Shown: positions 141 to 15,429, counted from the stretch's first letter. The stretch is 15,429 bases of DNA from a virus (IMGVR_UViG_2540341028_000012), one strand, 5' to 3'. Notes: generated from the letters alone by a model not told the origin. Translations and numbers: made by a program.

Positions 141-371
141 ATGAGACACTTTATCTATCAGGACGAAAAATCACATAAATTCTGGGCAGTTGAGCAACAG
201 GGAAACGAGTTGCATATCAGTTGGGGAAAAGTTGGCACCAAAGGGCAAAGCCAGATAAAAAGTTTTTCAGATGCTGCGGCAGCGGCAAAAGCGGAGCTTA
301 AGCTGATTGCGGAGAAGGTGAAGAAGGGGTATGTGGAGCAAGCGAAGGATAATGAGGTGTACTGGCAATAG
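141..371 (+). CDS. WGR-domain protein, N-terminal portion (MolR-like); native sequence ends at 352, last 6 codons and stop come from the IS end
   Basis: ORF track 76 aa; W-G-K/R motif (ISWGKVGTKGQ) and KKGY ending typical of WGR domains; SD-like AGGGA 6 nt upstream of ATG; reading frame runs into IS terminal repeat starting at 353. Confidence 0.55.
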   Translation: MRHFIYQDEKSHKFWAVEQQGNELHISWGKVGTKGQSQIKSFSDAAAAAKAELKLIAEKVKKGYVEQAKDNEVYWQ

Positions 372-395
372 CGGACACTACCATTTGTTCTTTTT

Positions 396-1214
396 TTAAG
401 CAGCCATCTGATGATATTTTTCCCTGAAGGCTGCCGGGGAGATATTCCCCAGACGAGAGTGACGACGCTGACGATTGTAGAAAATCTCAATGTATTCCCG
501 TATTACTGAGATGGCTTCATCCCGGTTATTAAAACGATAGTGGCTCAGGCTCTCATTTTTCAGCGTTCCCCAGAAGCTTTCCATCGGAGCGTTGTCGTAA
601 CAGTGACCTTTACGCGACATTGATGTTTTCAGACCAGACTGCTCCTGTATGACCCGGTAATCGTATGCGCAGTACTGTGAACCTCGATCAGAGTGGTGGA
701 TTAGCCCGGCAGGTGGGCGCTGGCTCCTGAGCGCCATAAACAGGGCTTTACCTGTCAGCTCTTTTGTCATGCGCTCTCCCATGGCGTAGCCGACAATTTC
801 GCACGTATAAACATCTTTGATGCCAGCGAGGTACAACCATCCCTCCTGTGTGGCAACATACGTCAGGTCCGCCACCCAGACCTGATTTGGTGCTGTAGGA
901 GCGAACGTCTGGTTCAGCAGATTTGGCGCAACTGGCAGATTGTGGTTCGGGTTCGTAGTCGCTCTGAACTTGCGTTTCTGCTTACAGCGTAGCCTTAGCT
1001 CCTTACGAAGACGTGCCAGTCGGTCACGACCAACGATGATGCCATTCTCTGCCAGCTCCGTCTGGAGCCGCCGGATTCCATATGTTTCGCGAGTGCGGAT
1101 ATGTGCCACCTTAATCTCCAGTTTTAGCCGCTCATCACTTTGTTTTCTGTCTGAGGGTTCATGCTGTACCCAGTTGTAATAACCGCTCCTGGATACACCA
1201 AATACCTGACACAT
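396..1214 (-). CDS. IS600-like OrfB (DDE transposase catalytic domain)
   Basis: ORF track 272 aa; IS3-family OrfB motifs (HSDRGSQY, CYDNAPMESFWGTLK); normally expressed as OrfAB by -1 frameshift. Confidence 0.85.
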   Translation of the reverse strand: MCQVFGVSRSGYYNWVQHEPSDRKQSDERLKLEIKVAHIRTRETYGIRRLQTELAENGIIVGRDRLARLRKELRLRCKQKRKFRATTNPNHNLPVAPNLLNQTFAPTAPNQVWVADLTYVATQEGWLYLAGIKDVYTCEIVGYAMGERMTKELTGKALFMALRSQRPPAGLIHHSDRGSQYCAYDYRVIQEQSGLKTSMSRKGHCYDNAPMESFWGTLKNESLSHYRFNNRDEAISVIREYIEIFYNRQRRHSRLGNISPAAFREKYHQMAA

Positions 1215-1263
1215 CGCTTCAATGGGAAATTGTTGTCGCCATTGTTCGATTAACGCGTATTTT

Positions 1264-1551
1264 TCAGCGACTCCTGTGCAAAATACGCTGTTGCTTTTTT
1301 AATATATCTCGCTCAAGGCGAGCTTCATTTAACGCCTTACGCAGTTGCAGAATTTCAGATTCCAGTTCAGCCACCGTGCGGGAACCAGGAGTACCGAGCC
1401 CTTTTCTGGCGGCGGTAACCCATTGTCCTAAAGTGCCTTCAGGAAGGGATAATCGGGAAGCGCCTTCACTGACCGAAAGTTGATTTTCAAGAACCGTTCT
1501 GACAGCTTCGGCTTTGAACTCTTTAGAGTAACGTTGGTTTTTTCTGCTCAT
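1264..1551 (-). CDS. IS600-like OrfA (HTH transposase subunit), C-terminus altered by 1-nt contraction in the frameshift run
   Basis: ORF track 95 aa MSRKNQRYSKEFKAEAVRTVLENQ...; ends ...ILKKQQRILHRSR instead of ...ILKKATAYFAQESLKNTR seen in copy 2. Confidence 0.8.
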   Translation of the reverse strand: MSRKNQRYSKEFKAEAVRTVLENQLSVSEGASRLSLPEGTLGQWVTAARKGLGTPGSRTVAELESEILQLRKALNEARLERDILKKQQRILHRSR

Positions 1552-1615
1552 TATTAGCTCCTTCTGATGCCATTCTATTTCAGGAAGGAGTGTCCGTTAA
1601 ACTCAGGCTACCTCA

Positions 1616-2197
1616 ATGTGTTGCGTCATATCAATCATCCGTTCGCATTGACACTGCTTATACGTGTAGCCGGGCAAACTAAACGCTGTCACGATCGGAT
1701 GACGAAAGCCATTGCTGCGTTCCCACATGCAGCAATGGCGGCACTGACGGAACTTCTTGGGCAAAAAGAAGAGAACAGTTGGCGCATTATGCTAATGACA
1801 ATGCTTATCTCACAACCAGCACTGGCAGAACAGGTCCTTCCCTGGCTCTCGACACCCGCAGTTGCCGTACTGAAATCATACCAGCAACAACTGACACAGC
1901 CCTCAAACCATGCCTGCGCCGATCTACTGCCTGCCGTATTAGTCTCACCGCCCTGGCTTTCGAAAAAGAAAAAATCTGTAATGCCGGTATTGGATTTAAC
2001 GCCATTACCGTTGGAGTCATGCTGTACATTGACTGAGACGGCAGAAAAAGAGATTCATACAAGGCATCGCTGGCACGCACATCAAATAGACATCGGCCAA
2101 AAAGAGGATATTCAGAACTACCTGGCACGTCTGGGTTTCAATCGCTGGAATAATGGCCAGTATATGAAAGCGTCTGATGCTGTTGTAGAACTCTGGC
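1616..2197 (+). pseudogene. Internal fragment of a larger gene (possibly remainder of the MolR-like gene), bounded by IS600 at 5' and IS911 at 3'
   Basis: Open frame continuous across whole interval (part of track ORF 1567-2271 whose Met lies inside the IS and whose stop lies inside IS911); no own start or stop. Confidence 0.4.
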
Positions 2198-2205
2198 TGA
2201 AGTGG

Positions 2206-3373
<1,168 letters not shown>

Positions 3374-3445
3374 TGGAGCACCTGTGTTGTTCTGAGGTGA
3401 GCATATCACCTCTGTTCAGGTGGCCAAATTCAGTGTGCCACTTCA

Positions 3446-3506
<61 letters not shown>

Positions 3507-3509
3507 ATA

Positions 3510-3585
<76 letters not shown>

Positions 3586-3587
3586 GC

Positions 3588-3664
3588 TGGCCCACCACCG
3601 AGGACTCGAACCTCGCACCGTCAACTTAGAAGGTTGATGCTCTATCCGGATGAGCTAGTGGTGG
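3588..3664 (-). tRNA. tRNA-Arg (anticodon UCU, reads AGA)
   Basis: Reverse complement CCACCACTAGCTCATCCGGATAGAGCATCAACCTTCTAAGTTGACGGTGCGAGGTTCGAGTCCTCGGTGGTGGGCCA; perfect acceptor and T stems, anticodon loop CTTCTAA, encoded CCA. Confidence 0.8.
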
Positions 3665-3665
3665 T

Positions 3666-3742
3666 TGGTGGCCCTTGCTGGACTTGAACCAGCGACCTGG
3701 CGATTATGAGTCGCTCGCTCTGACCAACTGAGCTAAAGGGCC
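3666..3742 (-). tRNA. tRNA with CAU anticodon, ileX-like (probable lysidine tRNA-Ile2 reading AUA; elongator Met not excluded)
   Basis: Reverse complement GGCCCTTTAGCTCAGTTGGTCAGAGCGAGCGACTCATAATCGCCAGGTCGCTGGTTCAAGTCCAGCAAGGGCCACCA; anticodon loop CTCATAA; resembles E. coli ileX from memory. Confidence 0.75.
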
Positions 3743-3751
3743 GGAGGCAGA

Positions 3752-3780
3752 ATAATAACCATATGTCATCACATCTGCAA
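3752..3780 (-). promoter_or_regulatory. Candidate sigma70 promoter for the tRNA cluster
   Basis: On minus strand -35 TTGCAG (3775-3780), 17-nt spacer, -10 TATTAT (3752-3757); predicted start about 2 nt upstream of the tRNA-CAU 5' end. Confidence 0.4.
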
Positions 3781-3830
3781 ACCCATCTGACCACCAGCAC
3801 GTTTAACGTCCTGTGCCGTTTTTCAGGTAT

Positions 3831-3852
3831 AAAAAAACCCGCATAAAGCGGG
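3831..3852 (-). terminator. Rho-independent terminator (minus strand) downstream of the small ORFs, upstream of the tRNA promoter
   Basis: Minus-strand stem CCCGC / GCGGG (3838-3842 / 3848-3852) with 5-nt loop followed by seven U (3831-3837). Confidence 0.5.
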
Positions 3853-3932
3853 CTCTTTCAAATGTCCATGTCTGCTATTCGCCTCGCGGTACAGCTTTGC
3901 GAAGCGTACAAGAATTGAAGCAGTTTTTTACG

Positions 3933-4196
3933 TCAAAAAGCAATAACTTTTTTCTCTATACCAAAAGCCATAACCATTGGTTTGTACAAAATAAATTCTG
4001 CCACCTTTAGCCAATGCTCAATGCGTCTTTCACAGGTTCTTAAACTCCATTTCGGGTGTGCATCATTCAGCAGTTCAGCCATTTTGCGTTTGGTCATCCC
4101 CCGCCCCTCATACCGTTGCCGAAGGACGCTAATCAATCCTGGATGCTCTGCCAGCACCTCACTTATGACCCGATCAATACATAACGCCTCTGGCAT
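3933..4196 (-). CDS. Hypothetical phage-associated protein (87 aa), unknown function
   Basis: ORF track 87 aa; overlaps upstream ORF by 23 nt in the +1 frame; followed by terminator at 3831-3852. Confidence 0.4.
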   Translation of the reverse strand: MPEALCIDRVISEVLAEHPGLISVLRQRYEGRGMTKRKMAELLNDAHPKWSLRTCERRIEHWLKVAEFILYKPMVMAFGIEKKVIAF

Positions 4197-4488
4197 CAGT
4201 ACAATGCGCCAGCCAGCTCTTTTGCTTACCGTTAATCATATCCCGCAAAAAAGCCTCAAGTTCAGACTTGTTCAGACCTGCTTTTTTCATCCTCCGGAGC
4301 GCCTCGTTAATTGCCGTTTTTGTCAGCTTTTTAGAGGCCAACAACTGGTTGAACATATTCCCCGTCTTACCGCCGCCAATATACGACCAGCGCCCCCACA
4401 TGCGCAGTTTTCCCTGAATCCAGACACTTTCCAGCGTGGTGAGACGAAGGTGTTCCCCGCTTTTGCCTGTATTTGTTGGGTAAATCAT
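4174..4488 (-). CDS. Hypothetical phage-associated protein (105 aa); weak resemblance to Q-type late antiterminator N-terminus, unverified
   Basis: Internal Met of track ORF 4174-4638 at 4488 preceded by GGAAGG SD-like sequence 6 nt upstream; the 5' 150 nt of the track ORF lie inside IS600 and are not native. Confidence 0.4.
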   Translation of the reverse strand: MIYPTNTGKSGEHLRLTTLESVWIQGKLRMWGRWSYIGGGKTGNMFNQLLASKKLTKTAINEALRRMKKAGLNKSELEAFLRDMINGKQKSWLAHCTDARGVMY

Positions 4489-4543
4489 AAATAACCTTCC
4501 TGAGGTGTACTGGCAATAGCGGACACTACCATTTGTTCTTTTT

Positions 4544-5362
4544 TTAAGCAGCCATCTGATGATATTTTTCCCTGAAGGCTGCCGGGGAGATATTCCCCAG
4601 ACGAGAGTGACGACGCTGACGATTGTAGAAAATCTCAATGTATTCCCGTATTACTGAGATGGCTTCATCCCGGTTATTAAAACGATAGTGGCTCAGGCTC
4701 TCATTTTTCAGCGTTCCCCAGAAGCTTTCCATCGGAGCGTTGTCGTAACAGTGACCTTTACGCGACATTGATGTTTTCAGACCAGACTGCTCCTGTATGA
4801 CCCGGTAATCGTATGCGCAGTACTGTGAACCTCGATCAGAGTGGTGGATTAGCCCGGCAGGTGGGCGCTGGCTCCTGAGCGCCATAAACAGGGCTTTACC
4901 TGTCAGCTCTTTTGTCATGCGCTCTCCCATGGCGTAGCCGACAATTTCGCACGTATAAACATCTTTGATGCCAGCGAGGTACAACCATCCCTCCTGTGTG
5001 GCAACATACGTCAGGTCCGCCACCCAGACCTGATTTGGTGCTGTAGGAGCGAACGTCTGGTTCAGCAGATTTGGCGCAACTGGCAGATTGTGGTTCGGGT
5101 TCGTAGTCGCTCTGAACTTGCGTTTCTGCTTACAGCGTAGCCTTAGCTCCTTACGAAGACGTGCCAGTCGGTCACGACCAACGATGATGCCATTCTCTGC
5201 CAGCTCCGTCTGGAGCCGCCGGGTTCCATATGTTTCGCGAGTGCGGATATGTGCCACCTTAATCTCCAGTTTTAGCCGCTCATCACTTTGTTTTCTGTCT
5301 GAGGGTTCATGCTGTACCCAGTTGTAATAACCGCTCCTGGATACACCAAATACCTGACACAT
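4544..5362 (-). CDS. IS600-like OrfB (DDE transposase catalytic domain)
   Basis: ORF track 272 aa; one substitution versus copy 1 (ETYGTRR vs ETYGIRR); -1 frame relative to orfA through the A7 run. Confidence 0.85.
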   Translation of the reverse strand: MCQVFGVSRSGYYNWVQHEPSDRKQSDERLKLEIKVAHIRTRETYGTRRLQTELAENGIIVGRDRLARLRKELRLRCKQKRKFRATTNPNHNLPVAPNLLNQTFAPTAPNQVWVADLTYVATQEGWLYLAGIKDVYTCEIVGYAMGERMTKELTGKALFMALRSQRPPAGLIHHSDRGSQYCAYDYRVIQEQSGLKTSMSRKGHCYDNAPMESFWGTLKNESLSHYRFNNRDEAISVIREYIEIFYNRQRRHSRLGNISPAAFREKYHQMAA

Positions 5363-5397
5363 CGCTTCAATGGGAAATTGTTGTCGCCATTGTTCGA

Positions 5398-5700
5398 TTA
5401 ACGCGTATTTTTCAGCGACTCCTGTGCAAAATACGCTGTTGCTTTTTTTAATATATCTCGCTCAAGGCGAGCTTCATTTAACGCCTTACGCAGTTGCAGA
5501 ATTTCAGATTCCAGTTCAGCCACCGTGCGGGAACCAGGAGTACCGAGCCCTTTTCTGGCGGCGGTAACCCATTGTCCTAAAGTGCCTTCAGGAAGGGATA
5601 ATCGGGAAGCGCCTTCACTGATCGAAAGTTGATTTTCAAGAACCGTTCTGACAGCTTCGGCTTTGAACTCTTTAGAGTAACGTTGGTTTTTTCTGCTCAT
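5398..5700 (-). CDS. IS600-like OrfA (HTH transposase subunit)
   Basis: ORF track 100 aa ending ...RDILKKATAYFAQESLKNTR, typical IS3-family OrfA C-terminus; slippery A AAA AAA at the LKK codons. Confidence 0.85.
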   Translation of the reverse strand: MSRKNQRYSKEFKAEAVRTVLENQLSISEGASRLSLPEGTLGQWVTAARKGLGTPGSRTVAELESEILQLRKALNEARLERDILKKATAYFAQESLKNTR

Positions 5701-5756
5701 TATTAGCTCCTTCTGATGCCATTCTATTTCAGGAAGGAGTGTCCGTTAAACTCAGG

Positions 5757-8700
5757 CTACCTCACAACAACCAGCAAATCGCTGATACTTGCTGTGGGAT
5801 ACCAGCCATTTACCAGCCATGCCGATACAGAAAACTCCAGCGTCATGTGACCGTGACCGGCAGGCATATCAATAACACCCGTATATATCAGCGTATTATC
5901 CAGGGTCGTTCGGTTATAAATTTCAGCACCGTTTTTCTTCACTATCAGGCTGCATGACGAATAAATATTGTTATTCTTCCGCTCATGTTTAGCACCGCGA
6001 AACGCCACCGCGGGAATAACAATTTGCCGATCAAACGGCTGATCGTCATAAACCCTGACGGTAATGGTCCCTGATGGCCACCTCTCCGGTGCCCGGGAGT
6101 CCCGTGGGAAAGGTTTGCCCACTGTTTTAACGAGATCGCCTTCAATCTGGTTCGCGGACAATTTTCCCAGAACCCGACAGTTCTTATTAATCGTGACGTT
6201 GTTGAGCGTCCCGGAGTTCGCGTTCACGTTACCGCTGATATCGGCATTTTTCGCCGTCAGCCGTCCGCCAGGTGTCAGGGAAAATGCCGGAGGATTACCG
6301 CCGCTGGTAATGGTCGGAGCCGTCAGGCGTTTCAGGAACACGTCGTTCATGAATATCTGATCGCCCTGACCAACAAACATCGGCTTTGTGTTGCCATTCG
6401 CAGGATTAATCATCGCAATCCTGTCTGCCGCCAGCAGCACCTGACTCTGCATTCCTGCTGGCGTATTCTCAATACCGGCACCGATACCCGCAATATAAAG
6501 GCGTCCGTCCTTCATCTGTTGCAGCTTCACAGCCCACATGCTGTTCAGGTTATTATTTGTATCAACCTGAACTTTCTGTATCTGCTGGATTGCAGCACTC
6601 TGATTTTCCAGTTTTTTATTGACGGTTTGCGTGATTTCATTGCTGACATTCGTAATGGACGTCCTGATTTCAGTCAGGTCCGGCGCAAGCTGACCGTTAT
6701 CAATCTGCGTCCACAACTCCTTGCCGAGATGCGTGTTATTGATCAACCCTTTATAAAAACTCAGATAACCTTCCGCATCATCGCTCGCCCGACCGACGGC
6801 CTCCACAAATGCCGATTTGCCAACGGTGTTCACACTGCGAACGTAAAAATAATAATCATGGCCCGGCCTGATATTGATACTGGCGGCTATCCAGTACAGC
6901 GCCGTGCCAAGATAGCGGGCGCTGGTTTCAACCTGCCTGATATCCGCAATCCGCTTTTCCGAAAACCAGAACTCAAACTGCACCGTCGGGTCGTATACAG
7001 CCAGTTTCGGGACCGCCGTTATCTGAAAATACCCCGGTATCAGTTCAATAGTGACAGGCGCTGCCGGTGCCGCAATCCGGAACGATACCGACGCCGGATC
7101 GCCCTGCTGCCCCCGGGCATTTACCGCCCGGACTGTCAGACTGTAATTCCCCAGCGCCAGCTGCCTGAAGCGGTATGTGGTTTCCGTCGTCCTGGCTGTG
7201 CTGACCAGCCGCTCACTGCCGTCGTCCGCTGCCACGGTCAGGCGAAGCAGGAAGCTCACACCCTTCACCACCTTCGGCGTGTCCCATCGCGCCAGCACCT
7301 GATATTCCCCGCTGTCTGCGGTGACTTCGGCGGTCAGATGCTGCACCGCTGGCGGCGTGACACCATTCACCGTGCCGCGCCGGTCACCGTCAAAGTGTGC
7401 CCCGTTATCCACGATGGCCTCTTTTTCCGGCACATGCTGCACGGCGGTGATGGCATACGTGCCGTCGTCGTTCTCACGGATACTCACGCAGCGGAACAGG
7501 CGCTGGCGCAGCGTCGGCAGCTTCAGCCCCCACACGCTGTATTCTGCAACGCCGTCAGGAACCCGGCTCACTTTCACCTTCACGCCGTCGGTGACGGACT
7601 GAACCTCCACGCTGACCGGATTGCCATTTCCGTCAACCAGGCTTATCAGCGTGGTACAGGAGGACGGCAGCGTGATTTCACGGTCGAGCGTCAGCGTCCG
7701 GGTCTGGCTGTTCACCGCCAGTACGCGACCACCGGTGCTGATACCGGCATAATCATCATCGCAGATTTCAATGACATCACCCGGTACATGGCGAAGCCCT
7801 TCTGCGCCGACGCTGAAGTCCACGGTCTGCGTTTCCAGCAGTTCCGTTTTAATCAGCCACAGCCCGGCGCGGTGCGCCTGTCCCCGGCTGGTACAGCCAA
7901 AGGCATCCATCTTCGTGACGTTACGACCGTAACGGAGAATGGCCTGCGCGTCCTCCACAAGCTCTGTCGCCGTCTCATGACCGTTGTCCGGATCAATCCA
8001 GTTCACCTCAACGACATTATGGCGGTCCTTCAGGGCGCTGAAGCTGTAGCGGAACGGCGCGCCATCATCCGGCATCACCACATTACTGCGGTTATAGGTC
8101 CACACTTTATCCGACGGTCGGTCCTGCACGAACGTCAGCGTCTGCCCGTTCCATACCGGCATACAGCGCATCGCCGAGCAGAAATCACTGAGAACATCCC
8201 ACGCCTTACGCTGTGTGGTCAGGTAAGCGTTACAGGTGATGCGCGGCTCCGTGCCGCCAAATCCGTCCGGCACTGACTGGTCGCAGTACTGGCCGATGAC
8301 ATACAGCGCCCATTTGTCCACATCTGCCGCACCAAGACGTTTCCCCATGCCGTAGCGCGGATGAGTGAGCATGTCCCACCGACACCAGGCCATGTTGTTG
8401 CTGTATGCTGGCTTAAGCGTTCCGTCCCAGATACCGCTGTATTGCCGCGTCTGCGGGTTATAGTTCGACGGCACCTGCAGAATGCGCCCGCGAAGATGAT
8501 AATTGCGACTCACCTGCTGGTTACCGAACTGCTCTGAATCCACCTGCACGCCGACCAGCGCCGTGTTCGGGTAGCACTGTTTCACATCGATGATTTCGGT
8601 GTACGACGACCAGAGCGTTTTGTTCTGCAGCTGGTCTGTGGTGCTGTCCGGTGTCATCCTGCGCATCCGGATATTAAACGGGCGCGGCGGCAGGTTACCC

Positions 8701-9206
8701 ACCACCACCGAGGCCAGATACTGCGAAGTGGTTTTGCCCTTAATGGTGATGTCTTTTTCCGTCACCCAGCCACCGTTACGCTGTATCTGAACCAGCAGGC
8801 GGACTTCCGACGGATTCCGGTCCCCCTTTGAGGTGTTTTCCACCAGTGCCTGCACACTGAAGGTCAGGCGCAGACGATCAATGTTTGCCGACGTGATGGT
8901 CCGGGTGATCGGCGTGTCGTATTTCACTTCCGTACCCAGCACAGTCTCTGAGCCGGAAGATTCAAACCCCTCCGGCGGTGTCTGCTCCTGCTCGCCGGCG
9001 CGGAACACCACCGTAACACCGGAAAAGTTTGTCTTCCCCTCGCTGTCCAGGACTGGCGTACCGTTCAGCAGCACGCTTTTTAATCCATCCACCGGACCGT
9101 CAACCGGCCCTTCGCTGATGGCATCAATCACACTCAGCAACTGCGTGGATTTCAGGTTGTCCTTCGCTTCGCGCGGGGTATGCCCCTTACTGCTGCCTTT
9201 ACCCAT
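5757..9206 (-). CDS. J: Lambda-like tail tip / host specificity protein J, extreme C-terminus replaced by IS600 end (native part 5765-9206)
   Basis: ORF track 1149 aa; N-terminal about 900 aa closely match lambda gpJ as I recall it ([34 protein letters not shown]...); last codons and stop lie inside IS600 terminal repeat. Confidence 0.9.
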
Positions 9207-9266
9207 TCCTCACGCTCCATAAACGACAAAACCGCCCGCAGGCGGTTTCACATGAAACATTTTGCA

Positions 9267-9908
9267 TCAGCGACCAATCACCACAACCTGACCACCATCC
9301 CCTTCGTCTGCCGTGCTGATCTCCTGAGATACCACCCGCGACCCCACGCGCATTTCACCGTACAGAACAGGCAGAACATTGCCCTGGGCAACCATGTTAT
9401 CCAGTGAGGAGAAACAGGTGTTCTGTTTGCCGTTATCCGTTGTCTGTGTACGGGGAGTTCTGGCTTTCGGTGCCAGCATCTGTGCAACACCGCCAAGCGT
9501 CATACTGGCACCGAGAGAAAACAGCAGATTACTCGCCATAATTCCTACCCCCGGCATCCATATAGCAACCGCCATAACAGCTGCCCCCAGCACCGCCTGA
9601 AACACACCGCCACTTTTAGCTCCCACCAGACGCGGTACTATGTGGATCACTGCACCATTTGCCAGCGGCTCATTAAGACGGGCAGACAATTCGGTTTCAC
9701 CTGCATCACGCCCGGCAATGCGCACCTGATACCAGCCGTCACTCAGTTTCTGACGAAACGCCGGGAGCTGTGTGGCCAGTGCGCGGATGGCTTCAGCCCC
9801 CGTTTTCACACGAAGGTCGATGCGGCGGCCAAATCGTTGCAAATCCCCGTAAAGGCAGATGCGTGCCATTCCCGGTGACGCCAGAGGGAGTGTGTGCGTC
9901 GCTGCCAT
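9267..9908 (-). CDS. I: Lambda-like tail assembly protein I
   Basis: ORF track 213 aa MAATHTLPLASPGMARICLYGDLQRFGRRIDLRVKTGAEAIRALATQL...; start overlaps K 3' end by 103 nt as in lambda. Confidence 0.85.
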   Translation of the reverse strand: MAATHTLPLASPGMARICLYGDLQRFGRRIDLRVKTGAEAIRALATQLPAFRQKLSDGWYQVRIAGRDAGETELSARLNEPLANGAVIHIVPRLVGAKSGGVFQAVLGAAVMAVAIWMPGVGIMASNLLFSLGASMTLGGVAQMLAPKARTPRTQTTDNGKQNTCFSSLDNMVAQGNVLPVLYGEMRVGSRVVSQEISTADEGDGGQVVVIGR

Positions 9909-10549
9909 TTGTCGGTATACCTCTCTCGTTTACTCAGTTGTTCAGGAATATGGTGCAGCAGCTCACCGTCGCCGCAGTAAATGGCGGCATGATTCGGCAC
10001 CGATGAACCAAAACAGCACAGCAGCACATCGCCCGGTTGTGCTGATGACAACGGCACCTGATACAGCCCTGTGGCCTCCAGATTATCCAGATAGAGATTC
10101 TGACCGTGACGCCACCAGTCATCCCCGCGATGAAAATCCGGCATCTCAATCCCCGCCAGATGATAAGCATCCCGGAACAGCGTGTAACAGTCCGTCACCC
10201 CGTGCTCAAAGCGCCGCCCGGTGAGATGCGGCACACAGCGGAACTTGTGAATCGCCCCCCGGCAGACCAGCCACCACGGCAAATCACTCTGCACCTGCAG
10301 CCGCCGGTCAGCCTCACTCAGCCAGGGCAGACCACCGGGATGACTGTGGACCAGTGCCACAATCTCCCCCTGCATCTCTGCCCGCAGCCAGTCTTCCGGT
10401 GCGATACGAAAATACGCCTCCGGCTCTGCAGAAATATTCACACAAGGGATATACCGCTCCCCCTCCGGCGTTCTCACCACGAAGCCACACGACTCCGCTG
10501 GCGCACATCGCCGGGCGTGCGCCAGAATCGCTGATTCTGTCTGTGTCAT
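9806..10549 (-). CDS. K: Lambda-like tail assembly protein K (JAMM/MPN plus NlpC/P60-type domains)
   Basis: Internal start MTQTESAILAHARRCAPAESCGF... within track ORF 9806-10813, 4 nt after L stop; JAMM motif HSHPGGLPWLSEAD (HxHx7Sx2D); Cys (GVTDCYTLF) and His (NHAAIY) of an NlpC/P60-like fold. Confidence 0.85.
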   Translation of the reverse strand: MTQTESAILAHARRCAPAESCGFVVRTPEGERYIPCVNISAEPEAYFRIAPEDWLRAEMQGEIVALVHSHPGGLPWLSEADRRLQVQSDLPWWLVCRGAIHKFRCVPHLTGRRFEHGVTDCYTLFRDAYHLAGIEMPDFHRGDDWWRHGQNLYLDNLEATGLYQVPLSSAQPGDVLLCCFGSSVPNHAAIYCGDGELLHHIPEQLSKRERYTDKWQRRTHSLWRHREWHASAFTGICNDLAAASTFV

Positions 10550-10553
10550 GGAT

Positions 10554-11253
10554 TTACTGAGAAAGTTTATTGATGGAAAGGAAACCGCCGAAATTACCGG
10601 TATTGTTGCGCAACTCACACCCGCGCATACACTTGCTGCATTTGTCCTTCCGGATATCCGTCGTTGGTTTGTCGAACTCGTCAGCCACTGCCCTGCCCGT
10701 GTAACCACACTCATCAGAACGGTAGGTCCACATACAGGTATTCGCCAGCATGATACGCCCCGGGAAAACCGCGCCATCCGTCTCCGTTGGTGTGGCCAGC
10801 ACAAAAGAGGCACTGACCGCGCTCAGTTCGCTGCACTGCTCGATGCGCCAGCGGCTGATCACCTCCTGCTCCGGATCGGCGTCACTGTTTCCGTTGACGA
10901 AGTTCACCGCATCCAGAAAACGGGCGTAAACCTTACGCCGGACCACCGTTCCGCCGACCAGACTCTGCAGATCTTCCGCCATCCCGGCGACCATACCGTA
11001 CAGGTTAGAAACCGTCAGCGTGGGGCGCGTACTGGTGCCTTTGCCATTCAGTTCAAAACCACTCCCCCTGAATGGGATACGGCTGATACTGTCGCCCCTG
11101 CCAGGTGACCGGCTCACCTTTTTCGTTCTGCTCATTACAGAAAAAATAACGTTCTCCACCGACCTCTGTCAGGTCGATTTCCCAGAGCACCACGCTGGCC
11201 GACTGCTCCGCACGGGTGCATTCATTCAGTGTTTCCTGCCGGATATCCTGCAT
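10554..11253 (-). pseudogene. L: Lambda-like minor tail protein L, frameshifted
   Basis: N-terminal 66 aa (11053-11253, MQDIRQETLNECTRAEQSASVVLWEIDL...) and C-terminal part (from 10554) are in different frames; junction at a C5/G5 run (11064-11068) where lambda L reads QGSGFELNGKG. Confidence 0.75.
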
Positions 11254-11582
11254 CAGTTCACCACCTGTTCAAAATCGGCCGTTACAGTCACCCATAACGC
11301 CCCCACGCTTGCCGACCATTTACGACAAGCCACCCTGATCGGTTTCCAGTCATAAGGTGGCGTCCACTGAAATGCGCGGACGCCACCGTGCCGTTCCAGA
11401 AAGGCTTTTAAAGGTGGGTGTTCACCTTTACGAACACGTATCGTCACGCTGTAAGTCGACAGCAGATTATTCAGTCCCGCCGGGCGACGCTGTTCATAAC
11501 CATCACCCAGCTTCACTGCCACCACTTTTGGCTCTGATACCACATTCATATCCGGGCGCACCTTCCAGCGAAACGTCTCCAT
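11253..11582 (-). CDS. M: Lambda-like minor tail protein M
   Basis: ORF track 109 aa METFRWKVRPDMNVV..., same length as lambda gpM; start overlaps H stop (TAATG), stop overlaps L start. Confidence 0.8.
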   Translation of the reverse strand: METFRWKVRPDMNVVSEPKVVAVKLGDGYEQRRPAGLNNLLSTYSVTIRVRKGEHPPLKAFLERHGGVRAFQWTPPYDWKPIRVACRKWSASVGALWVTVTADFEQVVN

Positions 11583-14500
11583 TACCGGTATGCTCCACTT
11601 AACCGGCCACCATCACGGGCCTGCTGTTGCATAAAGTCCGCGGCCGCTTTTTTCCCGAGGTCATAAACCACCTTCAGTGCTGCCGGACCTATCTGCCCGT
11701 TCGTGCCGTCGTTATTGATCCCGATGTTGTACTGCGGGGCAAACATCACCATGCCTGAACCACCAGTATCCGCCACAACCCCCAGCTTACCATCAGCACC
11801 GCGACGCAGTGGCAGAATGGCTTCAGGTCCCGCTTCCCCCATCACACCCGCGCCTTTTGCAAAAGCAAAAAACGTCGGACGGTTAACCACCGTGCCACTG
11901 TAGCGACTCAAATCAGCAGACTGGTAAACACCGCCATCAGCATTAGTCGTGAAGCCGAATAAAGAGCCGACGCCCTTTACCGCCTGCATCATGGCCATCT
12001 GTGCCATAATTCTGGCCATATCTGACAACAGGGAAGAGGTGAAGGATTTAAAATTCAGCTTACCGGTGGTACAGAATGTCGCCAGTGCATTACCGGCACT
12101 GCTGAATGCCACTGTAAACATCTGTTCTGCCGTTCCCACCGCATTATCCGCATCCGCCGTAAAATTCTGAAACGCCCGCATGGCACCGTTTTTCCAGTCG
12201 CCCTGCGCCACTTCCAGTTCCTGCCAGTAGCGTTTGTTTTCATTCAGTTGTCGCTTCAGGCTCCCCTTCAGCACCTCCTCAGCCCTCCGGTAGTCCTCCG
12301 TCCCGTAAGTGCCTTTCTGGCGACTGTCATTCTCAAGCTGTTGCAACTGTTGCCGGTATTCCTGCCGGATGCGCAACTGTGCCTGGTAGCGCTGCCGCTG
12401 CTTATCCCCCATACCTGCAGTGGCAATATCCAGATTGTGCTGCTCACGCAGTGCACGTTCTTTGTCTGCCAGCTGGCTGGTCAGCTGAACCGTTTTTTTT
12501 CTCAGGTCGTTAAGCGCTGTCTGTTTCTGCAGCTCCTGCTGTTTCACATCCAGCAGCGTCAGCGCCTGAATCAGCTCATTCTTACGGGCCAGCACACTCT
12601 TTTCATCTGCCGTCAGCTTTTTCCCGTCCAGGTCGCTGATGCGCTGCTGCAGGGCCAGAAGCTGTTTATGCGCTTCAGTCATCCTTTCAGTGGCAATGCC
12701 TGCTGACTGTCTGGCAGCAGCAATCTGCCCTTCCACCTGTGCCTGCTGCTGACTGTACTGCAGCAATAACCGGGTGGCCTCATCATTACGGGTTGCCCGT
12801 GTATTTTTCTTAATGGCTTTTTCGTAACGTTCATTTTCACGCTGTATCGCCGCATCCCTGACAGCCTGGTCGGCGTACTGCATGGCATTAATACGCGCAA
12901 TTTCCCGCTGATGTCGTGCAGCTTCCGTTTCATTCATCCGGTTCAGCGCGGCATTTTCAGCATTCCGGCGTTTCTGTTGCTCCTGGTAATTCCGTTCTGC
13001 CTGCGCTTTTGCATCCTGCAAATCCTTCCGGCGTTTTTTCTCCTGAAGATCGTTAAGACGCTGCTGATCGTACTCCACCTGTGTGGAGGCGTTTGTCCAC
13101 GGATATTTTTTCGCGCGCTGAATTTTTTCCTGTAACGCATCAATCTGCGCATCCAGCGAGTCTTCACGACCAATATTCATGGCCGCATCCCAGAACTGCT
13201 TCCACCAGTCAGACAAGGTTTGCAGCGTACTACCCAGCGCATTGAGATTATTATCAATATCAGATGTGCGTTTACCGGTTTCCTCTGCCAGCGCAGACAT
13301 GGCGATCCGGGCCGCATCACTGGACCGCCCCTGCTCCCCAAGGACGCGTATCTGCTCAAGCTGAGTGGCAGTCAAAAAATGCAGCGCATTGTCCAGCGCC
13401 TTCGCGGCATTTACAGGATCATCCTTCAGCCGCTTAAACTGATTTATGGTATCGCTGACCGACTGGCCAACCGATCGCTCCATCTGTGCGGCAGCTTTCG
13501 CCACCATACCAATATCGTTTCCATGAAATGCCCCACTGCCCACCACCTGTGCCAGCGCACCGGCTGCCGCATGTTGCGTGATACCATTCCCGGATATGGC
13601 CCGGCTGAGTTTCCACAACTGCCCGACAGTGACACCGGCATAATGTCCCGTCAGCGCCAGCTGACGGTTAAATTCCTCGCCCTCCTTCCGGCCGTCATGC
13701 CAGGCTTTACCCAGACCCAGGACCGCCGCGACAAGTCCGCCAATAACGCCGCCAGTCATCATGCCTTTCGGCGACATCAGTGCGCCTGTCCATCCGGCAC
13801 GGTTAGCCAGCGTTATCCCGGATCCCCTCAGCGCACCAAAATTGCCGCGCGCCATCTGACTGATTAACACCCCCAGCTCCCGCCGGGCTGCCGCACTTTT
13901 CAGCCCCAGCGAATGTGTGGCTTTTCCTGCCCGCTCCATTTTGCGGATATACACTTCTGCAGCACTGCTTACCCCCAGCTGAGCCGCCCTGGCGCGAAGC
14001 AACTCAGAAGACGACAGATTCTGGCGGGTTGCCTGCTCTTTAAGCTGGCGGATAAACGCCGCTTTCTGCCGGGTGGCCTGTTCCTCTGCCTGCGTCAGGG
14101 CACGGGTTTTCGCCGTGATCTCCGAAATCAGCGCCAGATAATCCTGCTGACCAACCCCGCCACTGTTTCTGGCCTGTCGGATCTGCTGCTGAATACGCTG
14201 TAATTCCTGAAGCCCCGCACCGGCCTGTTTCACACTGTCAATCTGGCGATAAAAGGCGGCAGCCGCTTTATCCTGCGCCTCCGCCAGTGCCCTGGCCTGC
14301 GCCTGTTCCTCGCGCATTTTCTGATTCAGGGCATCCACGCGCAGACGGGTTTGTTCCACCTCACGGGCCATGCGTTCATGAGCCCGTGCATTCTTCTCCA
14401 CCGTCTGCGCATGGGCTGATGCTGCTGTTGCAGCCGAAGAAGCCGCATGCATTGTCTGCCGGGCCGCCTGAGTCTGACGCTCCATAAAACGCTGCATACG

Positions 14501-14623
14501 GGCAGAAGACCGTTCTGCATCACCGGCTGCACCATTCAGAAGGTTTTTGATACGGGGAATTTCATTTTTAAACTCTGCCGCATCAATCCCCAAATCAATG
14601 ACCAGGTTGGCTATCTGGTCCAT
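11582..14623 (-). CDS. H: Lambda-like tail tape measure protein H (1013 aa)
   Basis: Track ORF 11582-14653; probable start at second Met (MDQIANLVIDLGIDAAEF...) preceded by GGAGG 8 nt upstream; coiled-coil Q/R/E/A-rich middle; C-terminus ...NDGTNGQIGPAALKVVYDLGKKAA... resembles lambda gpH end. Confidence 0.9.
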   Translation of the reverse strand: MDQIANLVIDLGIDAAEFKNEIPRIKNLLNGAAGDAERSSARMQRFMERQTQAARQTMHAASSAATAASAHAQTVEKNARAHERMAREVEQTRLRVDALNQKMREEQAQARALAEAQDKAAAAFYRQIDSVKQAGAGLQELQRIQQQIRQARNSGGVGQQDYLALISEITAKTRALTQAEEQATRQKAAFIRQLKEQATRQNLSSSELLRARAAQLGVSSAAEVYIRKMERAGKATHSLGLKSAAARRELGVLISQMARGNFGALRGSGITLANRAGWTGALMSPKGMMTGGVIGGLVAAVLGLGKAWHDGRKEGEEFNRQLALTGHYAGVTVGQLWKLSRAISGNGITQHAAAGALAQVVGSGAFHGNDIGMVAKAAAQMERSVGQSVSDTINQFKRLKDDPVNAAKALDNALHFLTATQLEQIRVLGEQGRSSDAARIAMSALAEETGKRTSDIDNNLNALGSTLQTLSDWWKQFWDAAMNIGREDSLDAQIDALQEKIQRAKKYPWTNASTQVEYDQQRLNDLQEKKRRKDLQDAKAQAERNYQEQQKRRNAENAALNRMNETEAARHQREIARINAMQYADQAVRDAAIQRENERYEKAIKKNTRATRNDEATRLLLQYSQQQAQVEGQIAAARQSAGIATERMTEAHKQLLALQQRISDLDGKKLTADEKSVLARKNELIQALTLLDVKQQELQKQTALNDLRKKTVQLTSQLADKERALREQHNLDIATAGMGDKQRQRYQAQLRIRQEYRQQLQQLENDSRQKGTYGTEDYRRAEEVLKGSLKRQLNENKRYWQELEVAQGDWKNGAMRAFQNFTADADNAVGTAEQMFTVAFSSAGNALATFCTTGKLNFKSFTSSLLSDMARIMAQMAMMQAVKGVGSLFGFTTNADGGVYQSADLSRYSGTVVNRPTFFAFAKGAGVMGEAGPEAILPLRRGADGKLGVVADTGGSGMVMFAPQYNIGINNDGTNGQIGPAALKVVYDLGKKAAADFMQQQARDGGRLSGAYR

Positions 14624-14950
14624 AACGCACACCTCCGGAAATACCTTCCCCAAGATGCATCAGTTCTTCGTCCGTTCGCTCCGGTATCCCGTTCTCTTCC
14701 GGTAAAAGGCTGAAATCAGCCACCGCAGCATCACTGCTGCCGGACACCATTCTCACGATCAATGCCTTCAGCGAGGCAAACTGCGCATCCATCCACACAT
14801 CACTGAAGCTCTGCATCCGGAAATAATCGCCCCCTCACCAAGCTCAGTGGCCGACATTTCCGACAGCATCCGCCGCCAGTCTGCCCGCCGGAACTCCCGG
14901 GCAAGCCGCATGACAAACTGCATTTCCCGCGTCAGGACTTTTCCGGCGTC
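14595..14950 (-). pseudogene. T: Tail assembly chaperone T region (G-T frameshift product), apparently disrupted by a 1-nt indel
   Basis: -1 frame relative to G is open from the G 3' end to a stop at 14768; a different frame (track ORF 14595-14816) is open from 14834 to 14595 and overlaps H start; the two would join with one extra G/C in the C5 run at 14830-14834. Confidence 0.35.
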
Positions 14951-15168
14951 AGCGCCTCATGATCATCATCCCCGGCATTCTCAATGGTCCCCATACCGCT
15001 CAGCGACAGAACCCTCTCCGCCCCCGCGCCCAGCGCATCATACGACCATGTTGTCATAATGGATGCGCAAAGCGTCTCAACATCCTGAGACTGCTCAGCA
15101 TTCCACAGTGAGCGGGAAACCAGCCAGGCATTGATATCCATTCCCATACGCAGAAAAGCAATCTGTCG
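14932..15168 (-). pseudogene. G: Tail assembly chaperone G, 5'-truncated by IS629-like insertion
   Basis: Frame open from IS junction (15168) to stop at 14932; track ORF 14932-15147; ...AWLVSRSLWNAEQ... aligns by eye with C-terminal half of lambda gpG; N-terminal roughly 60 codons absent. Confidence 0.55.
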
Positions 15169-15429
15169 TGAACCGCCCCGGGAATCCTGGAGACTAAACT
15201 CCCTGAGAAAGAGGTAAACAGGATGACTAAAAATACTCGTTTTTCCCCCGAAGTCCGTCAGAGGGCGATTCGTATGGTTCTGGAAAGTCAGGGCGAATAT
15301 GACTCACAATGGGCGACAATTTGTTCCATTGCTCCAAAGATTGGCTGTACGCCGGAGACTCTGCGTGTCTGGGTTCGCCAGCATGAGCGGGATACCGGGG
15401 GCGGTGATGAAGGGCTCACCCCCCGTTGA
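15169..15429 (+). mobile_element. IS629/IS1203-like insertion sequence (IS3 family), left end only; continues beyond window
   Basis: Terminal sequence TGAACCGCCCCGGGAATCCTGGAGACTAAACTCCCTGAGAAAGAGGTAAACAGG followed by orfA start; matches my recollection of the IS629 left end. Confidence 0.75.
15223..15429 (+). CDS. IS629-like OrfA (partial, 3' end outside window)
   Basis: ORF track 68 aa MTKNTRFSPEVRQRAIRMVLESQGEYDSQWATICSIAPKIGCTPETLRVWVRQHERDTGGGD..., runs to window edge without a stop. Confidence 0.8.
   Translation: MTKNTRFSPEVRQRAIRMVLESQGEYDSQWATICSIAPKIGCTPETLRVWVRQHERDTGGGDEGLTPR

Follow-up and report, generated by a model that had tools for sequence, protein, structure and literature searches.

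Two probable origins for four single-base frame breaks in a prophage remnant and nearby insertion sequences of a Shigella flexneri draft contig

The four single-base frame breaks considered here most probably belong to two classes (we put the probability at about 0.72): those in the tail genes T and L are true inherited lesions, and those in the first of two IS600 copies and in IS911 are draft-assembly errors. The breaks lie in a stretch of 15,429 nt, called the window throughout, which is contained at 100% identity in the draft contig AERO01000018.1 of Shigella flexneri CDC 796-83, a serotype 6 strain (strain, serotype and draft status as given in PMC6397287 and PMC4206707). A sequence-only reading had listed the breaks, placed all of them in homopolymer runs, and offered either decay or systematic miscalling as the cause. 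The breaks are indeed present where it put them, and each could be located against near-identical intact references; however, neither cause fits all four, as decay accounts for T and L and miscalling probably for the two insertion sequences.

Results

The tail genes were compared with the near-identical intact prophage of the EIEC strain CFSAN029787 (locus L002, 98.75% identity), and the IS600 and IS911 insertions in molR with the orthologous insertions of two close relatives, AMJZ01000022.1 and CP026811.1 (loci L015 and L016). Protein products were counted in a collection of 15 billion proteins with contigs from NCBI and Logan sources, and E. coli searches covered 5,426 complete genomes. The features of the tail region are:

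14935–15169, minus strand: 3' part of the tail chaperone gene G, its first ~50 codons removed by an insertion sequence
14595–14923, minus strand: tail assembly gene T, in the −1 frame relative to its partner G and disrupted behind codon 30
14830–14834, minus strand: break in T, C5 (G5 on the coding strand), with the lone T of a TGG (Trp) codon deleted
10554–11253, minus strand: tail gene L, split into a 66-aa fragment and a C-terminal fragment in two frames (tblastn)
11064–11068, minus strand: break in L, C5 (coding strand G5), G4 having gained one base (C4 in CFSAN029787)
5757–9206, minus strand: tail tip gene J, ending in an Arg codon and a stop from IS600 in place of the final 11 codons

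On the comparative evidence the breaks in T and L are genuine inherited pseudogene lesions, because many projects, with more than 20 assemblies between them, have the same bases at these sites, in a distribution such as a nested phylogeny would predict. Over the 9.4 kb of tail genes aligned with CFSAN029787 these two breaks are the only gaps; residues 1–30 and 32–109 of T match at 100% identity in two frames (tblastn), and both fragments of L match Pfam PF05100. The codons GAG TGG GGC of T have become GAGGGGGC, i.e., GAG-T-GGGG now reads GAGGGGG, and the C5/G5 run exists because a lone T between G and GGGG was lost. Both lesions are found base for base in more than 20 independent assemblies, including L005–L012 (base-identical at both sites), L032, L036 and L057–L062. 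The T deletion is present in 24 of 24 related loci that retain the site, among them L032 (CP000036.1), the genome of S. boydii Sb227; this genome, described in a 2005 paper, reportedly predates flow-based and nanopore sequencing. At L, the G5 allele is carried by L005–L012, L032 and L036, and G4 by L031, L033–L035, L037 and L038. Among L031–L038 and L040, all with the T deletion, G5 is confined to L032 and L036, and six loci combine the T deletion with an intact 232-aa L (G4). Sister genomes of one accession series also differ at this site, with G4 in CP026807.1 against G5 in CP026811.1, and the 66-aa L product was identified on 64 contigs (NCBI and Logan). T and L therefore show both the recurrence in independent assemblies and the nested descent of inherited pseudogenes; the breaks in IS600 copy 1 and IS911 do not recur, their orthologous copies being intact.

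Based on this distribution, the T lesion would be the earliest, through loss of the lone T beside a G4 run, and the L lesion would have followed by classical slipped-strand expansion from G4 to G5; since the deletion in T predates the insertion in L, the two can serve as lineage markers. We envisage a decaying lambda-like prophage inherited vertically in a Shigella boydii / S. flexneri serotype 6 lineage. Later, in the sub-lineage of CDC 796-83, insertion sequences would have cut 5' sequence from G and the final 11 codons from J, with loss of the head genes as well.

The remnant is damaged in other respects as well. The head genes are gone, everything upstream of G being deleted, and the 5' end of G is cut at 15170 by another insertion sequence. 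J, previously counted among the intact long ORFs, is 1149 aa here and 1159 aa in L005, its last 11 codons having been replaced where IS600 copy 2 sits at its 3' end. With insertion sequences cutting into both G and J and no head genes left, the tail module is dead regardless of the calls at T and L, and the earlier view that the origin of the breaks decides this point does not hold. Other relatives have private indels of their own, A8 to A7 in H, G6 to G5 in K and a further one in J, the J lesion of L009 deleting non-repeated bases, and one relative carries a nonsense mutation. As a test of relaxed selection, substitutions within the clade were counted, and these few comprised eight nonsynonymous and seven synonymous changes.

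The association of the breaks with homopolymer runs was only partly upheld. An ancestral run changed by one base at L (G4 to G5), IS600 (A7 to A6) and IS911 (C3 to C2), but not at T, which lost a single unrepeated T; homopolymers at break sites may thus result from a deletion instead of causing it. The 1-base loss in IS911, given earlier as GG for GGG, was confirmed, but the run there is only three bases long and, since runs of three or more hold 16% of all bases, it lends little support to a homopolymer effect. Using the ancestral run lengths (7, 3, 4 and 1) and a uniform per-base indel model, we obtained a combined p of ~0.02, owed mostly to the A7 run. Of the lesions we regard as genuine, that in L is, by these alignments, the only true run-length slip.

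The features of the insertion sequences IS600 and IS911 are:

353–1615, minus strand: IS600 copy 1, in molR, 1263 bp long owing to the change from A7 to A6
1295–1300, minus strand: break in IS600 copy 1, T6 (A6 on the coding strand), the orfA/orfB slippery run shortened from A7
4501–5764, minus strand: IS600 copy 2, intact, with the slippery T7 at 5443–5449, inserted in the 3' end of J
2196–3445, minus strand: IS911, in molR, 99.7% identical to the intact copies of L003 and L004
2414–2415, minus strand: break in IS911 orfB, GG (CC on the coding strand) for GGG, a 1-base deletion relative to intact copies
3116–3122, minus strand: programmed −1 slippery heptamer of IS911, A AAA AAG, intact and with a normal frame change, as read from the sequence

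Copy 1 of IS600 lies between the WGR part of molR (141–352) and a molR fragment (1617–2195), and IS911 between that fragment and a tRNA segment (3446–3760). The two IS600 copies are 99.76% identical, with two substitutions and one gap. Copy 2 and six further IS600 copies have T7 at the gap, and the same molR::IS600 insertion reads A7 in both relatives (L015 and L016). In copy 1 orfA is closed at 95 aa and orfB is at +1 rather than −1; a heptamer A AAA AAG is in phase, but with orfB at +1 there is no programmed −1 cassette. Such cassettes are found in copy 2 (TTA AAA AAA GCA), which is 100% identical to copies in L016 and L057, and in IS911. The 95-aa orfA product of copy 1 was found on one contig only in the entire protein collection. 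Copy 1 also has one substitution (1075) in common with another IS600 copy of the same genome, so a real gene conversion could have made its allele. In elements of the IS3 family the programmed slippery site is also the longest run, so that a change there has a specific functional meaning; the sequence-only reading had not recognised the IS600 run as such a site. Genes avoid A7/U7 motifs, a bias that may stem from high indel rates and transcriptional slippage (PMC4066793). Shortening of A7 to A6 is also the likeliest of all real mutations in IS600, which counts against calling it an artefact.

IS600 copies with A6 are not peculiar to this contig. They occur at nine or more other loci, including at least four in Sb227, on both Shigella-type and E. 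coli-type backgrounds and without a compensating change, and account for about one tenth of annotated orfA products (95-aa A6 products on 122 and 184 contigs, vs more than 1000 each for the A7 forms). The PGAP pipeline labels A6 copies "programmed frameshift" by annotation alone. The change converts the site to the canonical heptamer A AAA AAG, with orfB at +1. It seems rather improbable that A6 is a maintained mobile variant rather than a dead copy; possible routes to a product would be transcriptional slippage restoring an A, or a −2/+1 ribosomal shift, and transposase production by A6 copies, if it still occurs, would mean that a single IS species has an alternative mode of recoding.

The IS911 deletion strikes the Pro codon of DNSPMERFF, two codons ahead of the Glu of the DD(35)E motif, and a private substitution (2418) lies three bases away. 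The same molR::IS911 insertion reads CCC in AMJZ01000022.1 and CP026811.1, and the intact copies of L003 and L004 are annotated "programmed frameshift". The CC allele was absent from ten other IS911 loci with a 68-aa orfB tail, in which the breaks have other causes, and an 81-mer search of the 5,426 complete E. coli genomes gave a best identity of 97.6%. Exact-pattern scans of species-representative genomes and metagenome contigs returned no match to either private IS allele; these scans were run without a positive control on collections that probably hold little Shigella, and are weak negatives.

The list of four breaks, although correct, was incomplete, with at least two more unprogrammed breaks in the window:

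3933–4488, minus strand: DUF1133 prophage gene, split by a 1-base insertion, GG at 4192–4193 vs a single G in L054
15170–15429, plus strand: end of an IS629/IS1203-like IS3-family element, whose orfA stops early after a C6 at 15419–15424

Pfam matches to DUF1133 cover profile positions 1–102 and 100–176 on separate ORFs, and the resulting 104-aa product is unique to this assembly. In the IS629-like orfA, orthologous copies read CCACC where the window has C6, and the indel is three bases from a private substitution. In having an indel beside a substitution, this site and that in IS911 point to a faulty consensus more than to a clean slip.

A control came from metG, on the same contig, where ~1.09 kb outside the start of the window a TT to T deletion (GGCTTGCGG to GGCTGCGG) splits the gene into 326 and 349 aa between the HIGH and KMSKS motifs. 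The split is unique to this assembly, both relatives having an intact metG of 677 aa, and metG was matched at ≥80% coverage in 5,425 of the 5,426 E. coli genomes; this is a lesion that should be impossible in an essential single-copy gene. Like it, the changes in IS600 copy 1 and IS911 are private with intact nearest relatives, which those in T and L are not. A core from 4501 to 15169 is 100.000% identical over 10,669 nt to JWSL02000004.1, and four to six private indels fall outside this core and none within it (p ~0.03 to 0.008); the number expected from the observed divergence is ~0.15. In a second contig of the same assembly (3.7 kb, L020 vs L019) we found no further indels. Judged by these comparisons, the repeat-rich flanks of the contig are unreliable and the unique core is error-free.

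Discussion

The identity and ancestral state of each lesion, its distribution among assemblies and the metG control are direct observations; what we infer is that the private deletions of the two insertion sequences arose as artefacts, and not by gene conversion or very recent genuine mutation. The breaks in IS600 copy 1 and IS911 are probably artefacts of this draft, as they are private, lie near a private deletion in metG and have intact counterparts in the relatives, all of which fits miscalls or repeat-consensus errors; either homopolymers would have been called too short or multi-copy repeats merged into a mixed consensus. It is unlikely, though the most serious alternative, that all four breaks are genuine, those in IS600 and IS911 being very recent strain-specific slips or gene conversions within the same unselected decay. 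Indels are known to favour the A7 run (PMC4066793), A6 copies of IS600 exist at many loci of related genomes, the substitution that copy 1 has in common with a paralogue hints at exchange, and the relatives have private indels in H, K and J. Against this, such a history needs four to six private 1-base indels in ~8 kb at a divergence from the relatives of 2 substitutions per 10 kb, one of them breaking the essential metG between HIGH and KMSKS, and the IS911 allele was found nowhere else among the searched loci, genomes and collection scans.

That all four are homopolymer miscalls of a flow-based or nanopore-type platform is scarcely credible, even though every site now shows a mononucleotide run and metG shows that the assembly holds at least one false single-base deletion. 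For T and L this explanation is refuted by the recurrence of the alleles, which are the same in more than 20 assemblies of many projects and years, finished genomes included; moreover, CP026807.1 and CP026811.1 differ (G4 vs G5), the distribution is nested and phylogeny-like, and the T lesion removes a non-repeated base. Among the private changes are substitutions and one insertion in a non-run context, which pure flow-type miscalling does not explain and which to that extent also count against the artefact class. Programmed ribosomal frameshifts misread as damage are likewise very improbable as the source of the IS and G/T frame changes. Programmed −1 frameshifting is indeed found in IS600, IS911 and G/T alike, with the lesion of IS600 falling exactly in the slippery run, but the three programmed sites are distinct from the flagged breaks and intact: the A7 of IS600 copy 2 (5443–5449), the A6G of IS911 (3116–3122), and the G to T shift, with residues 1–30 of T in the −1 frame of G. 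Frame analysis excludes the flagged breaks from this role, since A6 puts IS600 orfB at +1 relative to orfA, the break in IS911 comes 700 bases after the slippery heptamer, and the T break is 90 bases inside T.

We consider the two-class origin an ordinary finding that moves no open biological question. Its value is mainly in quality control: the tail-gene pseudogenes of the prophage remnant are trustworthy, and, unless resequencing bears them out, the draft's frameshifts in IS600, IS911, DUF1133, the IS629-like element and metG should not be taken for biological gene loss.

Each component has a known counterpart. Pseudogene formation and prophage decay in Shigella, with reduced selection and IS expansion (PMC2374995), produce the same frameshifts, IS insertions and truncations, and the nonsense mutation of one relative; the lesions here, too, have been inherited in a nested pattern across S. 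boydii and S. flexneri 6 genomes, with nothing unusual about them. Streisinger slips correspond to the change of G4 to G5 in L, to those of A8 to A7 in H and G6 to G5 in K of relatives and, if real, to that of A7 to A6 in IS600, but differ from the lesions of T and of J in L009, in which non-repeated bases were lost and, in T, the lesion merely adjoins a run. Homopolymer and consensus errors of drafts give the same private single-base deletions at runs of 2, 3 and 7, one in an essential gene, though here there are also substitutions beside indels and a 1-to-2 insertion, to which a mixed repeat consensus may contribute. In lambda, T has no independent role and lies in the −1 frame of G, an arrangement retained here (tblastn placed G in frame −1 and residues 1–30 of T in frame −3), and the flagged break inside T is not the programmed site. 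Finally, the −1 frameshifting of the IS3 family (A AAA AAG in IS911, A AAA AAA in IS600) is matched by IS600 copy 2 and IS911, with orfB at −1 and the heptamer in the overlap, and PGAP annotates such copies "programmed frameshift"; IS600 copy 1 differs in that its run is one base short, so that slipping by −1 yields no more than wild-type OrfA again, with a shift of +1 or −2 required for OrfAB.

Origin and layout of the contig

Contig AERO01000018.1 (assembly GCA_000193935.2) matches the window at 100% identity; two papers (PMC6397287; PMC4206707) and protein records identify the assembly as Shigella flexneri CDC 796-83 (serotype 6), listed there as only "partially sequenced". All of the relevant features of the window are on the minus strand:

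141-371, minus: start of molR (WGR domain)
353-1615, minus: IS600 copy 1
between IS600 copy 1 and IS911, minus: molR fragment
2196-3445, minus: IS911
3443-3742, minus: truncated tRNA, then tRNA-Thr, tRNA-Arg and tRNA-Met
3933-4488, minus: DUF1133 prophage gene, split in two
4501-5764, minus: IS600 copy 2, intact
5757-15169, minus: lambda-like tail module J, I, K, L, M, H, T and the 3' part of G
from 15170: end of an IS629/IS1203-like element (orfA region 15223-15429)

One relative matches the core (window 4501-15169) at 100% identity; there IS600 copy 2 is simply inserted in J and lom comes next (L057 13507-15414), and in the window this element (4501-5764) is adjoined not by lom but by a DUF1133/tRNA segment from another prophage. 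IS911 adjoins the truncated tRNA (3443-3497), and in another relative molR goes on at this point (L015 8643 onward). These two junctions reflect either rearrangement mediated by IS elements or a chimeric join in the contig.

Frameshifts in the tail genes T and L

The intact, near-isogenic prophage of EIEC strain CFSAN029787 aligned to the window with 98.75% identity over 9,409 nt and only two gaps, which are the L and T sites that the sequence-only reading had listed as broken. On the coding strand L reads CAGGGGGAG in the window vs CAGGGGAG in this reference, a G4 to G5 expansion (plus-strand C5, 11064-11068). In T, GAG TGG GGC of the reference has become GAGGGGGC; loss of the single T in the Trp codon joined the G to GGGG, so that the C5 run at 14830-14834 is the result of the deletion and not an altered run length.

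Both alleles are base-identical in eight fetched assemblies, and the 66-aa N-terminal L fragment was found in 64 contigs (NCBI and Logan sources), indexed in 109 blocks. As several of the eight carry intact J (1159 aa), lom and full-length G, the two frameshifts predate the truncation of J and G by IS elements. A look-up of the 73-aa T fragment added ten further loci; the T deletion was present in all nine that retain the site, including S. boydii Sb227 (CP000036.1), while only Sb227 and CP026811.1 among these nine have the L G5 allele, and six have an intact L (232 aa, G4). This nested distribution places the T deletion first and the L insertion later. Within one accession series the call is G4 for one strain and G5 for a second, a difference that rules out a shared systematic miscall, and the core is 100.000% identical to JWSL02000004.1 over 10,669 nt. 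On these comparisons the T and L frameshifts are genuine.

The same T-deletion allele also occurs within a different prophage backbone (L040 5001-5222), which has a 1021-aa tape measure and a different L, suggesting that resident lambdoid prophages have recombined with each other.

Private deletions and the quality of the flanks

IS600 copy 1 has an A6 run on its coding strand (1295-1300), whereas copy 2 and six other IS600 copies have A7; IS911 has CC (2414-2415) vs CCC in intact copies, the lost base belonging to the DNSPMERFF Pro codon, two codons ahead of the Glu in the DD(35)E motif. Using the chimeric ORF across the IS600/molR/IS911 junctions we located both of these insertions in AMJZ01000022.1 and CP026811.1, where the runs are A7 and CCC. 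The 95-aa product of IS600 copy 1 occurs in a single contig in the entire protein collection, and the CC allele was not found in other IS911 loci, complete E. coli genomes or collection scans. As far as these collections reach, no other assembly shares either deletion.

An internal control, metG, about 1.1 kb outside the window start on the same contig, indicates that false single-base deletions are present in the draft. Between its HIGH and KMSKS motifs one T of a TT pair is missing, which splits the gene into 326 + 349 aa (7604-8584 and 6552-7601 of L013, the extended contig); both fragments occur in this assembly only, metG is intact (677 aa) in AMJZ01000022.1 and CP026811.1, and the region was matched at ≥80% coverage in 5,425 of 5,426 complete E. 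coli genomes. Methionyl-tRNA synthetase is essential, and the deletion is thus almost certainly a sequence error. Two further breaks had not been listed by the sequence-only reading. A G to GG insertion (4192-4193) splits the DUF1133 gene (3933-4488), giving a 104-aa product seen in this assembly only; this fifth unprogrammed frame break is outside any homopolymer. The IS629/IS1203-like orfA beside G stops early after C6 (15419-15424), where the orthologous copies of two relatives have CCACC vs CCCCCC in the window, i.e., one substitution plus one insertion. An intergenic T6 (3924-3929) is T5 in the closest reference (EIEC, L054). Altogether there are four to six private single-base indels in the IS-rich flank of about 8 kb and none in the 10.7-kb core (binomial p about 0.03 to 0.008); the observed divergence (2 substitutions per 10 kb) predicts only about 0.15 real indels.

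An artefact is probably the explanation of the IS911 deletion and is somewhat favored for that of IS600 copy 1. IS911 and the IS629-like element each have a private substitution 3 bases from the indel, and IS600 copy 1 shares one substitution with another IS600 copy of this genome; these observations suggest a repeat consensus that is mixed or of low quality as much as plain homopolymer undercalling. A genuine recent slip or gene conversion may instead have occurred at the IS600 copy 1 locus, as A6 is a real allele at other loci: exact A6 81-mers are present in complete E. coli genomes, and the A6 orfA product was found in 122 contigs for the Shigella type (at least four loci in S. boydii Sb227) and 184 for the E. 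coli type, compared to >1000 for each of the A7 forms. The fetched A6 copies (L041-L053; 1263 bp, orfB in +1) represent at least nine different loci and have no compensating change; PGAP labels them "programmed frameshift", although a -1 slip cannot join their orfA to orfB. Their abundance is the sole mildly novel thread here. E. coli genes avoid runs of A7 and U7, perhaps owing to high indel rates and transcriptional slippage (PMC4066793). Whichever applies to copy 1, the genome has an intact copy 2, and IS600 as a family is thus not dead here.

Programmed sites and run association

The orfA frame of copy 2 is TTA AAA AAA GCA, from which a -1 slip enters orfB, identifying the A7 run as the IS600 slippery heptamer. 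In copy 1 the in-phase heptamer is now A AAA AAG; a -1 slip merely restores the wild-type OrfA tail, and with no shift translation stops after 95 aa, with orfB in the +1 frame. The IS911 slippery site (3116-3122) is intact, and codons 1-30 of T are in the -1 frame of G, like the expected G/GT chaperone arrangement. We rejected programmed frameshifting as the source of the four listed breaks, all of which are additional to the programmed sites of IS600, IS911 and G/T.

The proposal that all four fall in homopolymer runs located each of them correctly and fails for T, the one event that does not fit. Runs of ≥2, ≥3, ≥4 and ≥7 hold 45%, 16%, 6.4% and 0.3–1.1% of the window's bases, respectively; with ancestral run lengths of 7, 3, 4 and 1 and a uniform per-base indel model, the combined probability is about 0.02, mainly from the A7 run. 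The run association is real but modest. Slipped-strand decay and homopolymer miscalls, offered as alternatives, were each half right: decay applies to T and L, and artefact is the likelier account of IS600 copy 1 and IS911.

State of the tail module

The death of the tail module had been thought to hinge on these calls, but it is dead whatever their outcome: T and L are frameshifted, IS600 copy 2 has removed the last 11 codons of J (listed as intact), another IS has taken about 50 codons from G, and, as the IS beside G adjoins the chromosomal genes kdsB and ycaR in this strain, no head genes are left. Other relatives have extra lesions, namely A8 to A7 in H, G6 to G5 in K, a lone-T deletion in J and, in CP026811.1, a TGC to TGA nonsense change in G (equivalent to window 15067). 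These are compatible with a shared remnant that is still decaying independently in the relatives, those in single assemblies being indistinguishable from errors. Within the clade there are 8 nonsynonymous and 7 synonymous substitutions, too few for a test of relaxed selection. Taken together, the observations stay within what is known of Shigella genome decay and of errors in draft assemblies.
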